From contig OX638340.1 of NCBI GenBank assembly GCA_951812955.1, forward strand, positions 2,752,001 to 2,816,000: 64,000 nt of DNA, in the 5' to 3' direction. Below the pieces are notes generated by a model, which did no database searches, was not told the DNA's origin, and saw only the letters and a list, made by a program, of their open reading frames with translations. This DNA comes from an uncultured Gemmatimonadota bacterium (GTDB taxonomy: Bacteria; JAAXHH01). Shown piece after piece: positions 35,203-52,060 of this stretch. Position 1 is the first letter of the stretch, and the number at the start of each line of letters is the position of its first letter. A program made the position numbers and the translations under genes.

Positions 35203-35355
35203 AATCCTGTTCGATTCGTTATGGCAACCATCGTGTTGCCGTCGCATAGAAATGTTTGGCTACTCAAATATGACTTTGCATTATATAACCTTCCGTTGGG
35301 GTGTCAAGAAAAAAGAAGGCGAGCAGTGTTTTTTTCGCAATGACAAGTTTTGTAC

Positions 35356-35384
35356 TTGACGGGCGGACCGGGCCATGGTATATT
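35356..35384 (+). promoter_or_regulatory. Sigma70-like promoter candidate (TTGACG-N17-TATATT)
   Basis: Near-consensus -35/-10 hexamers with 17-nt spacing, 47 bp upstream of the transposase ATG, in an AT-richer patch. Confidence 0.35.
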
Positions 35385-35431
35385 GAGGGTAGATAAGGAC
35401 AACAAACCATTTACCCTGTTGGAGTTATACC

Positions 35432-36307
35432 ATGAACTTGCACGAAGTGTTTACCCGATTCCCCGATCAGAAAGCCTGTATCGACCACCTGGAAGCGATC
35501 CGTTTTGCAAACGGCGCATATTGCCCGTTGTGCGGGAGCATGGAGAACGTCCGCCGGTCCAACCTGAAAAGCCGTGTCGGACGCTGGAACTGCCATGACT
35601 GCAAATCCTCGTTTAACGTCCTATCCGGTACGCCGTTATCCGGTACGCATATCCCGTTGCCCCGATGGTTCGCGGTCATGGCCCTGATGGTCAATGCCAA
35701 GAAGTCGCTGTCGAGCCACCAGTTGGCGCGGGATCTCGGATTGACCCAGCCTACGGCCCTGTACATGCAGGAACGCCTACGGGCGGTTATGGCATCCGAT
35801 CAAGCCGGTATGCTGGCCGGCATCATCGAAGCGGACGAAACCTACGTGGGCGGACGCCCGCGCAAGCAGAACAAGCGCGACGATTCCCCGACCGGCGGAC
35901 AGGGTAAATCGGACAAGACCCCGGTAATCGGCGCAGTCGAACGAGATGGCAAGGTCGTGGCGAAGATCGCCGATGACATGACCGGCAAGGGCGTGCTGAA
36001 CTTCATCCAGACCGCCGTAAGTCCGGCGGCTCAGATACTGGTTACCGATGAGAACAAGGCATATCGGGCGGTACGCGGCATGATGGCGCACAGCGTGATC
36101 AATCACCGTTACGAGTACGTCAACGGGCCGGTACACACGAACACGATTGAAGGGTTTTGGAGCCTGTTAAAACGGGCGTGGTACGGCAGTCATCACAAGT
36201 ACACGGTCGGACGTATGCCGTTGTTTATCGCGGAAGCGGCTTGGAAGTACAACCACCGGAAAGACGGATGCGCGTGGGACAGTTTCACGCGTGCATTGTT
36301 CGCGTAG
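35432..36307 (+). mobile_element. IS1595-family transposase gene (IS ends not defined)
   Basis: 291 aa. N-terminal zinc-finger (CPLCGS...CHDCKS) and DDE region (ADETYVGG...DENKAY...NTIEGFWSLLKR) typical of the IS1595/ISXO2-like family. Local GC drop. Confidence 0.8.
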
Positions 36308-36325
36308 ACAGGAACTCGTTTTCGC

Positions 36326-37576
36326 TTAGACGGGCGATAAGATACTCCATAGGCCGGTCGCCCTTGATCTTGTTGCAATGACCACATAGCAGTTGCAGGT
36401 TGCCGATATGACCCCCCCCCCCTTCGACTGTGGCACGACATGATCGACCTCGAAATGCCGGTAATCGAACGAGTATTTACACCCGTTGCATTGCCCCTCT
36501 TGCTCTCCGAACAGGATATGCTTCGTCTCCCTGTTCTTGTACATCACGTCCAGCACGCCCTCTTGCTTCGGTATATCCTTCCGGTGGATGATATCCCCGA
36601 ACAGCCCGTGATGATCCCGTAGACGATGCTCCACGAGTTCCACGGCCTTCTCCGACAGGTCGATCCCCGCCCATTGCCTCAAGTGCGTTTCAGCCGAAAC
36701 ACACGCGGTAGCGCATCCACAGAACGGATCCAAGACCACGTCGCCCTCGTTGCTGGATGCAAGGATGATGCGTTCCAACAACGCAAGGGGCTTCTGGGTT
36801 TTGAACCCCGTATATTCCTTACCTCTGAGGAAGGGTATATGCGTAATCCAATCTTCAGGAAACTTGCCATTTGGGTTTAGTTCGCAAATCCCTGAAGATG
36901 GTCTCCCAGAACCCAAAGACGATTTAGCGTAGCCCGACCGATTTCGGGATGATTCAGCGTATGGAAGACGTATCGGATCGACGTTGAACGTCCACTGGTC
37001 GGTCTTAGCGTAGAAAAGTATAGTATCGTGCGCCCTCGACAATTGCCGTTGCCTGTTACCGGCCATTCGAGAATAACACCATACAATCTCGTTTCGGAAG
37101 CCAGACCGCCCGAAAACTACATCCATGAGCGTTTTAAGGTAGTGGCTGGCCGTCGGGTCGCAATGCAGATATATCGACCCCGTAGACTTCAATACGCGGC
37201 GCATCTCGATCAAACGCACGGCCATCATGCACAGATACGATTGTGTGTGTTTCCCATGCGCCAAGCCCGCCGTTTCCACTACTCGATACAATGCCGGTTC
37301 CGTGTCTGCGATCAGTCCCATCCAGGCCACATCCAGGTCGGAGAGGGTCCATGTATCCTTGAACGCGGCCCCGGCCGCCTTGCTGCCGATGGGCGCCGCA
37401 TAGTTCCGGTTCGAGTTGAACGGCGGATCAAGGTATATCAGGTCCACGGATTCGGAGTTCATGCCGCGTAGAATGTGCAGGTTGTCGCCCGTCCATATGG
37501 TACGGTTGACCCAGTTAGGAGCAGCCATAGACGCCCTTTCGACAACGGCCCCGAAGTTCCCCCCGGAGCCGTTCAC
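36326..37576 (-). CDS. Beta-class DNA amino-methyltransferase (N6A or N4C) fused to a C-terminal HNH nuclease domain; HNH frame disrupted at a G11 homopolymer
   Basis: Motif IV DPPF (DLIYLDPPFNSNRNY) precedes motif I (VVLDPFCGCATACV). C-terminal CNGCKYSF...VDHVVPQSKGG starts an HNH motif. The as-read frame then gives VISATCNCYVV. A +1/-2 shift at the homopolymer restores GNLQLLCGHCNKIKG. Confidence 0.75.
   Translation of the reverse strand: MNGSGGNFGAVVERASMAAPNWVNRTIWTGDNLHILRGMNSESVDLIYLDPPFNSNRNYAAPIGSKAAGAAFKDTWTLSDLDVAWMGLIADTEPALYRVVETAGLAHGKHTQSYLCMMAVRLIEMRRVLKSTGSIYLHCDPTASHYLKTLMDVVFGRSGFRNEIVWCYSRMAGNRQRQLSRAHDTILFYAKTDQWTFNVDPIRLPYAESSRNRSGYAKSSLGSGRPSSGICELNPNGKFPEDWITHIPFLRGKEYTGFKTQKPLALLERIILASSNEGDVVLDPFCGCATACVSAETHLRQWAGIDLSEKAVELVEHRLRDHHGLFGDIIHRKDIPKQEGVLDVMYKNRETKHILFGEQEGQCNGCKYSFDYRHFEVDHVVPQSKGGGVISATCNCYVVIATRSRATGLWSILSPV
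36412..36422. repeat. C11 (G11 on coding strand) homopolymer tract inside the HNH-coding region
   Basis: Eleven consecutive C residues counted from the sequence. Confidence 0.9.
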
Positions 37577-37966
37577 CGCGTGATTGTGGATTGTTTGTGA
37601 ATAAATCGGGGTTGCGCTGCCCTGTCAAGCGTAACGTACACGGTAGTCGGGTTCGTGCCTAATCTCATACATAGTTAAAGGACCGGAGATCATGCACGAT
37701 CCCCGGTCCTTTAACTATAGTCCTCTGCGATCTAACCGTCAATCGGCTCTATCAGTCCGGACGGCGATACTTTCCTGCATCAACCACGGCCCATACCATG
37801 ACTACGAGCGGAACGGCGTACCGTCAACATTACGGGCGGAGGGTTGCGCGGTAAGTACAAAACTTGTCATTGCGGTTTTTTTTCGCGGGGCGGGTGCGAG
37901 GTGGGTACGTACGCGCACAAGCGTGCGCGCGTTCCGTAGTTGTGCTAAAAAGGAGTTGAATGTATT

Positions 37967-51906: not shown

Positions 51907-51980
51907 TGGGCGCTAGTGGACTCGAACCACTGACCTCCACGATGTGAGCGTGGCACTCTAACCGGCTGAGCTAAGCGCCC
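51907..51980 (-). tRNA. tRNA-Val (anticodon CAC)
   Basis: Manual fold of the reverse complement: acceptor GGGCGCT/AGCGCCC; D-arm GCTC...GAGT; anticodon stem CCACG/CGTGG with loop CTCACAT; T-arm AGTGG TTCGAGT CCACT; discriminator A. Confidence 0.7.
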
Positions 51981-51986
51981 GGCAAA

Positions 51987-52060
51987 TGGGCCCGCCAGGA
52001 CTCGAACCTGGGACCGTCCGATTATGAGTCGGATGCTCTAACCAACTGAGCTACAGGCCC
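51987..52060 (-). tRNA. tRNA-Met (anticodon CAT; elongator type, tRNA-Ile2/lysidine not excluded)
   Basis: Reverse complement GGGCCTGTAGCTCAGTTGGTTAGAGCATCCGACTCATAATCGGACGGTCCCAGGTTCGAGTCCTGGCGGGCCCA. G1:C72 is paired, so not an initiator. Loop CTCATAA. Confidence 0.7.

Follow-up and report, generated by a model that had tools for sequence, protein, structure and literature searches.

Why does a gene for a DNA methylase fused to a nuclease carry, in the middle of its nuclease domain, a run of eleven guanines that puts the rest of that domain out of frame? The question is raised by a 64,000-nt stretch of DNA from an uncultured Gemmatimonadota bacterium (GenBank assembly GCA_951812955.1, contig OX638340.1, positions 2,752,001 to 2,816,000), which we call the window and in which all coordinates below are counted. 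The methylase-HNH gene in question is the passenger of an intact insertion sequence (IS) of the IS1595 family, 2,539 bp long (35336-37874). We propose, with a probability of about one half, that the G11 run is a slippage-prone contingency tract that turns the nuclease off and leaves the methylase on. An earlier note on this DNA had left three alternatives side by side: the tract switches the nuclease by phase variation, a frameshift has recently inactivated the gene, or the sequence is in error. The comparative data presented here support a recurrent hotspot and favour either a switch or very recent, independent hits; they argue against an old dead gene and leave some room for a one-base undercall of a G12.

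A G11 tract inside the HNH domain

The gene lies on the minus strand and is composed of the following elements.

36326-37528, minus strand: open reading frame (ORF) as read, encoding a beta-class N6/N4 DNA methyltransferase, the first half of an HNH domain and a 28-residue out-of-frame tail
36632-37447, minus strand: N6_N4_Mtase domain (residues 28-299) with motifs DPPF and DPFCGCATA, unaffected by the frameshift
36423-36490, minus strand: N-terminal half of the HNH domain, in the methylase frame, with the CNGC zinc pair and the catalytic DH
36412-36422, minus strand: G11 homopolymer inside the Gly-rich loop of the HNH domain (third base of the Lys codon AAG, then GGG GGG GGG G)
36285-36411, minus strand: C-terminal half of the HNH domain (HIGNLQLLCGHCNKIKG...), open to the homologous stop and readable only after a shift of +1 or -2 nt at the tract

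The start codon is likely the ATG at 37528, which gives the N-terminus MAAPNW as in the homologues, and not the GTG at 37576. The methylase half matches PF01555 over positions 1-219 of 221 (E = 2.8e-42) and is intact whichever frame follows the tract. With motif IV (DPPF/Y) ahead of a FxGxG-like motif I in a full domain it is a beta-class amino-methyltransferase, and the solved methylases nearest to it are M.MboIIA, RsrI and CcrM. The nuclease half is broken. As read, the ORF passes the tract as ...DHVVPQSKGGGVISATCNCYVV... (also given as ...EVDHVVPQSKGGGVISATCNCYVV...) and terminates at 36326; this frame misses the Asn of NLQLL and the second CxxC pair, and the match to HNH (PF01844) is confined to positions 1-26 of 47, with a score of 17.6 bits, below the cutoff of 21.4 bits. 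Repair by +1 nt extends the match to positions 1-47 of 47 (E = 9.4e-12, 45.3 bits) and brings together all of the CNGC...DH...NLQLLCGHCN elements. A tract of G12 or G9 yields ...SKGGG(G)HIGNLQLLCGHCNKIKGDRPMEYLIARLSENEFLSTRTMHA*, with TGA at 36287-36285, and G10 opens the third frame, so that G9 and G12 are in frame and G10 and G11 are out of frame. What the earlier note had read from the letters, that G11 throws the HNH domain out of frame, that G12 or G9 restores it and that the restored frame ends at about 36285, is thus confirmed by the profile matches and the position of the stop codon.

Once repaired, the protein falls into a very large family of fusions, about 410 aa long, of a beta-class methylase with a C-terminal HNH domain. 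Its best 120 homologues are 54-76% identical and nearly all contain both domains, and the repaired protein shares with more than 100 homologues the single-chain (Type IIC/IIG-like) architecture of methylase and nuclease on one polypeptide. Among the best 120 full-length homologues the HNH domain lacks a Pfam match in only three (P0001, P0002 and P0010), and these are the window protein itself and two run-bearing, out-of-frame relatives. Truncation of the 3' end of the gene by the IS was considered and rejected, because the C-terminal tail LIARLSENEFLSTRTMHA is conserved in relatives.

The tract, C11 on the plus strand and G11 on the coding one, is the longest homopolymer of the window, where the next G/C runs measure 7 nt (three of them) and runs of 8-10 nt are absent; real G/C runs drop off with length much faster than they do in shuffled sequence. 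A G11 nevertheless turns up in 12 of 100 dinucleotide shuffles of the window and is therefore not significant from dinucleotide composition alone, so the case for the tract rests on comparative data. At the level of the gene itself, the run has a length at which slippage can occur (about 8 or more for G/C), lies within an ORF and shifts the frame upon changes in length, as expected of a contingency gene.

Tract length in related elements

Related elements were compared at the codons that correspond to the tract. They represent different lineages, with about 67-89% protein identity, and not strains of one species. L001, L002 and L003 are 100% identical over 5-7 kb and are treated as a single biological observation, made in three separate ENA assemblies.

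Window: AAG + G10 + T CAT; G11; out of frame
L004: AAG + G7 + C GAT CAC; G8 then C; out of frame, one G short of G9
L001 = L002 = L003: AAG + G8 + AT CAT; G9 then AT; out of frame, in the other frame (restored by G8 or G11)
L019: CGG + G13 + GGC GAC CAT; G16 then C; in frame, five glycines
L005: AAG GGC GGC GGC GAT CAC (GGCGGCGGC); no run; in frame
L020: GGC GGA CCG GAC (GGCGGACCG); no run at this site; in frame there

The comparison of tract lengths, which the earlier note had proposed for related strains and which was run here on related elements, therefore returned G8, G9 and G16 at the same codons. Copies differ in tract length and occur both in and out of frame, and the coding sequence downstream is preserved (see below), which is the pattern of a contingency gene. 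From these alignments we regard the tract as a genuine, recurrent frameshift hotspot in this element family. Wider scans did not add to the list: DNA-pattern scans found no match in JGI metagenome contigs and none in viral contigs, and a scan of genome contigs returned only relatives of 50-66% identity, none of them with a run at the tract site.

These lengths bear directly on the explanation that the frameshift of the window is a homopolymer miscall, in which case the consensus would be one base short of a real G12 (or of a G11 with an A after it) in an intact gene. The correction needed, one added base, is the simplest possible, and G/C runs of 11-12 are the hardest positions for a long-read consensus. 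Related contigs with names such as ctgN_52x_l look like long-read metagenomic assemblies, and the 3.81-Mb source contig of the window may be of the same kind. Against such an error, the other ORFs of the window are long and unbroken, and none of the other genes in the 64 kb looked broken or changed frame at a homopolymer. Moreover, relatives in assemblies with short-read-style contig names (NODE_.., k119_..) are also out of frame, and since other assemblies carry out-of-frame lengths in two frames, real frameshifts do occur at this site. We consider a miscall unlikely; even if it were true for the window, the tract would remain a hotspot in the relatives.

Long G runs and codon usage in the passenger genes

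The accumulation of G runs is not limited to the window. G/C runs of at least 8 nt are present in six of the seven distinct IS-borne methylase-HNH genes, in all six cases as G on the sense strand, compared to only 2 in the other fetched DNA, which amounts to about 232 kb (Poisson P = 2e-10). Two of the six lie at other sites, in the recognition domain. One is the G14 of L020 (4842-4855), where the gene is frameshifted and split into ORFs of 265 and 203 aa; the other is the G9 of L023 (6485-6493), which is in frame. The sole other runs of at least 8 nt in the fetched loci are a C10 in L010 (1455-1464) and a G13 in L013 (6432-6444), on two contigs of metagenome-assembled genomes and outside methylase genes.

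Codon usage follows the same direction. GGG makes up 19% of the Gly codons in the host genes of the window, and none of the seven Gly triplets in these genes is all-GGG. In the window element, L001, L004, L005 and L023, the share of GGG among Gly codons outside the tract is 26-44% in the methylase-HNH genes versus 5-13% in the transposase genes of the same elements (P = 8e-7). The third-position GC skew is opposite in the two genes, i.e., one physical strand of the element is G-rich, and part of the GGG difference between passenger and transposase genes fits this strand excess.

Selection on the out-of-frame nuclease half

From the tract to the homologous stop, the HNH frame is open over 41-42 codons in all of the copies. 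The ratio of nonsynonymous to synonymous substitution rates (dN/dS, Nei-Gojobori) was determined for the 33 downstream codons that do not overlap the transposase gene and for 128 codons upstream of the tract. Read in the HNH frame, the downstream part gives 0.03-0.27, indistinguishable from the 0.06-0.21 of the upstream part. For the window and L001, which are both out of frame, yet in different frames, the values are 0.12 downstream versus 0.10 upstream at a dS of about 0.25. The frames that are actually read downstream of the tract reach about 0.9-2.9 and exceed 1 in 11 of 12 comparisons, and the candidate explanation that an alternative frame encodes something there was rejected on these values. 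Purifying selection has thus acted on the nuclease half for essentially the whole time over which these elements diverged. The breaks are either very recent and independent, or reversible, or bypassed.

The first of these options corresponds to recurrent, irreversible decay, in which the poly-G is a weak point of a nuclease that is dispensable or costly once the element has settled, each copy drifts towards a pseudogene, and switching plays no role. Three of the four run-bearing copies are out of frame, and one in four in frame is what neutral drift would give. Other copies are damaged as well: L019 is without the methylase N-terminus and most of its transposase, and L020 is split in the methylase. 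A query with the C-terminal part returned matches of 159-286 aa (120 listed), apparently fragments of the family, and the element-wide G skew could make runs without selection. Loss of restriction with retention of modification is also the usual fate of restriction-modification (R-M) systems. Decay does not sit well, however, with 41-42 downstream codons that are without any stop or further indel in the out-of-frame copies, nor with a downstream dN/dS that equals the upstream value even where both copies are broken, because all three breaks would then need to be very recent. In addition, the window element looks young and intact, with perfect inverted repeats (IRs), a target duplication and a full transposase. 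We therefore hold decay to be possible, yet doubtful.

The matches to the C-terminal query, limited to the 120 listed, consist of the methylase C-terminus and the HNH domain, and many of them are located on long contigs. This hints that genes of the methylase-HNH family are often split or truncated upstream; the search ranking of short proteins could contribute.

The bypass option corresponds to recoding by RNA polymerase or ribosome. Slippage of RNA polymerase along the run, or a -1 ribosomal shift at G GGG GGG, would yield a minority of full-length protein; from G11 DNA the trans-frame peptide SKGGGGHIGNLQLLCGHCNK would be expected. At equally low odds, such recoding would set a protective ratio of modification to restriction for a mobile single-chain system, with the methylase-only protein abundant. 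It would account for run-bearing copies that are mostly out of frame and yet conserve the downstream frame, and all six runs are G on the sense strand. There is precedent in the slippage on an A11 run in tssM1, which yields two functional length variants (PMC4256274), and in IS elements (PMC1088944). On the other hand, documented bacterial slippage sites are A/T runs, and the corrections needed here differ, with +1 nt for the window and L004 versus -1 or +2 nt for L001. Close run-free relatives (L005, L020, L023) are plainly in frame at the site. Programmed recoding implies that the same shift is conserved, usually together with a stimulatory element; here the shift required varies among the relatives, some of which need no shift, and the sequence beyond the tract showed no stable or covarying RNA structure (z = +0.8, covariation term +0.52). 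Programmed recoding is the least supported of the explanations, and we consider it improbable.

A proposed contingency tract that would uncouple restriction from modification

The reversible option is the one that we favour. In this model, the GGG codons that follow AAG and specify the Gly-Gly-Gly loop of the HNH motif have merged into a long poly-G, and slipped-strand mispairing at replication would alter the length of the tract. Lengths such as G9 and G12 (3n) would give the full methylase-nuclease, whereas with other lengths the protein would end inside the HNH domain, with the methylase intact and the nuclease dead. The recorded state G11 would thus be methylase on, nuclease off. This off direction would be safe for the host, since its DNA remains methylated and the nuclease can be switched back on without self-restriction. 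The model presupposes reversible and frequent switching within a population, a nuclease-off state that is of use, and methylase and HNH domains that presumably act as an R-M pair. A contingency tract is the best reading in that it jointly explains the tract, the lineage differences in length and frame, the enrichment of runs and the preserved downstream frame.

Several points weigh against it. A run at this site is present in only four lineages. Of these, L019 is a decayed element that may be in frame by chance, and a single in-frame copy out of four equals the expectation of neutral drift among three frames. The lineages are deeply diverged (dS of 0.2 to above 1), so the low dN/dS is compatible with recent, independent and permanent inactivations. 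The length differences are known between lineages and from assemblies, from which heterogeneity or reversion within a population can only be inferred. The sense strand of the methylase is mildly G-rich across the whole element, and the G runs may therefore come in part from mutation bias and not from selection for mutability.

The window allele itself may also have arisen without a classic slippage event. The in-frame sequence of relatives at the site is AAG GGG GGG GGG GAT CAT, i.e., G11 then AT, and the window allele equals such an L001-type in-frame ancestor minus the A. It is therefore explained equally well by loss of the A of the Asp codon as by a change from G12 to G11. The missing base could thus lie beside the run and not within it, a possibility that the earlier note had passed over. 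A repair by adding G would put Gly in place of the usual Asp, which is not invariant at that position (Ser in P0013, His in P0020).

A broader version of the model can be formulated, which we regard as improbable. In a clade of IS1595-family elements with swappable methylase-nuclease cassettes, long poly-G runs on the sense strand would be a built-in and selected feature, and DNA slippage, possibly also slippage of RNA polymerase, would produce mostly methylase alone and occasionally the full methylase-nuclease. Such a single-chain R-M gene could transpose or be transferred into unmethylated genomes without killing the recipient, and the arrangement might be widespread in sponge-associated bacteria. 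If true, this would amount to a new regulatory logic for mobile R-M systems.

The IS1595-family element and its passengers

The earlier note had missed that the gene is located inside an intact IS1595-family element, whose features are listed below.

35328-35335: target-site duplication GTTTTTTT, 8 bp, left copy
35336-35357, plus strand: left terminal IR CGCAATGACAAGTTTTGTACTT, 22 nt
35356-35384: promoter-like TTGACG-17-TATATT, facing the transposase gene
35432-36307, plus strand: IS1595-family DDE transposase, 291 aa, apparently intact, with zinc ribbon and DDE_Tnp_IS1595 domain (positions 1-153 of 153)
37671-37718: perfect palindrome with 16-bp arms ATAGTTAAAGGACCGG and a 16-nt loop, inside the element and upstream of the methylase gene
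37853-37874, minus strand: right terminal IR, a perfect 22-nt match to the left IR
37875-37882: target-site duplication GTTTTTTT, 8 bp, right copy

The IRs and the target duplication identify the methylase-HNH gene as a passenger of the IS, and duplications of 8 bp are the rule in the IS1595 family. The transposase matches PF12762 over its full length (E = 1.7e-35, 1-153 of 153) and PF12760 (E = 2.9e-9), and scores 170.9 bits against the NCBIfam model transpos_IS1595 (cutoff 75); it thus shows the ISXO2-like DDE domain and N-terminal zinc ribbon of the family. Its gene is convergent with the methylase-HNH gene and situated directly downstream of it, and after repair the two ORFs overlap by 23 nt at their 3' ends (36285-36307). 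L005 has the same overlap, and L020 and L023 have similar ones. For their C-terminal tails, P0006 and P0007 use a different frame of this conserved overlap DNA. The gene pair recurs in relatives between 25-nt inverted repeats, with 8-bp duplications TAGATGAA, AACAGGAA and GTTATTTC, and L005 is a 2,325-bp contig that holds nothing but this element. The neighbours of the window element are presumably a DtxR-like regulator gene and a glnE-like gene, as named from their ORF translations.

The true IRs and the duplication were exposed by comparison with the closest transposase relative, L021/L022 (96% identical). A methylase-side end at about 37624-37648, modelled on the IR CGGAATA...GGGCTTGAC of L001, L004 and L005, was rejected, since the IR there is degenerate and lacks a target duplication. 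The region contains a CTTGAC-containing stretch about 96 nt upstream of the methylase start, in the place of the terminal IR (..GGGCTTGAC) of L001, L004 and L005. This stretch may be the remnant of an IR that travelled with the cassette into a different IS backbone. The palindrome is absent from the shorter elements L001, L004 and L005; it overlaps the -10 box of a promoter-like TTGACG-17-TATAGT (37742-37714, minus strand) and could serve as an operator or form a 5' hairpin.

Members of the IS1595 transposase clade (74-96% identical) carry differing passengers, each convergent with the transposase gene. L023 carries an intact methylase-HNH gene, L025 a plain methylase of 290 aa and L027 a methylase fused to a Mrr_cat PD-(D/E)xK nuclease; in L021/L022 there are two ORFs of 82 and 166 aa, neither with a Pfam match. 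The homology between the window and L021/L022 ends exactly at the stop codon of the transposase. The alignments suggest that passengers have been swapped by cassette exchange.

Exchange may also act within the passenger. The presumed target-recognition region (36800-37070, minus strand, residues about 150-240) is without DNA homology to L001, L004 and L005, although both flanks are homologous, and the protein sequence of this region resembles P0004, P0005, P0008 and P0009 instead. This suggests that the recognition domain is exchanged as a mosaic, and that methylation specificities would differ accordingly among the elements.

Comparison with known systems

Phase variation of R-M genes by homopolymers and other simple sequence repeats is well established, and type III mod genes carry poly-C/G tracts (PMC3711429). 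The closest parallel is the single-chain Type IIG enzyme Cj0031 of Campylobacter jejuni, which phase-varies through a poly-G tract (PMC4889913). In both cases a G homopolymer lies in the coding sequence of a single methylase-nuclease polypeptide and its length decides on downstream translation. Unlike in Cj0031, the tract described here follows the methylase domain; its out-of-frame lengths cost the protein only the nuclease, methylation should persist and a change of the 'phasevarion' type would not follow. In addition, it is an HNH domain fused to a beta-class methylase that is affected here, the gene is located on an insertion sequence, and switching is inferred from lengths that differ between lineages only.

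The mobile unit also has a counterpart. A transposon-like R-M unit of Neisseria gonorrhoeae is bounded by 26-bp IRs and an 8-bp target duplication and includes a gene with transposase motifs (PMC2853133). This unit, or an IS1595-family IS in general, shares with the window element an ISXO2/IS1595-type DDE transposase with zinc ribbon, short IRs, an 8-bp duplication and an R-M gene between the IRs. The gonococcal unit contains a truncated Type IIG gene and an S subunit, whereas the window element contains a methylase-HNH fusion that is convergent with the transposase gene and overlaps it by 23 nt. The related elements also differ from the known units in that they swap their passenger (L027, L025, L021/L022). 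With respect to recoding, TssM1 occurs in two length variants through transcriptional slippage on an A11 run (PMC4256274). Here as there, an 11-nt homopolymer just precedes a frame change that reaches a conserved C-terminal domain, and a short and a long product are plausible. In tssM1, however, the run consists of A, the out-of-frame arrangement is conserved and slippage has been demonstrated; here the run consists of G, the shift differs and run-free relatives are in frame.

In the literature searched, no characterised member of the family of beta-methylase-HNH fusions was found. Such a fusion as cargo of an IS, a tract placed so that only the nuclease is lost and poly-G runs that recur across this element clade all appear to be unreported in that literature. 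Repeat-based phase variation of R-M genes, IS1595-family elements and transposon-like R-M units with 8-bp duplications are already well known.

If the tract does switch, restriction would be uncoupled from modification in one polypeptide, and the element could reside in a genome as a harmless methylase, with a nuclease that is re-armed at random. Contingency loci would then no longer be a matter of host-adapted pathogens, but would include environmental or symbiont bacteria as well as the cargo genes of insertion sequences. For annotation, such genes should neither be called simple pseudogenes nor be silently 'fixed'. The IS1595-carried methylase-HNH and methylase-Mrr fusions may represent an uncharacterised pool of compact mobile R-M enzymes.

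Two further observations concern the setting of these elements. The records of L002, L004, L005 and L020 bear labels such as KARI17, KELL22 and ROBB21 together with long-read-style contig names, which, going by record names only, suggests that the related elements come largely from sponge-associated metagenomes. Within the window, the sole Rfam matches at the gathering threshold are two adjacent tRNA genes on the minus strand (51907-52060).

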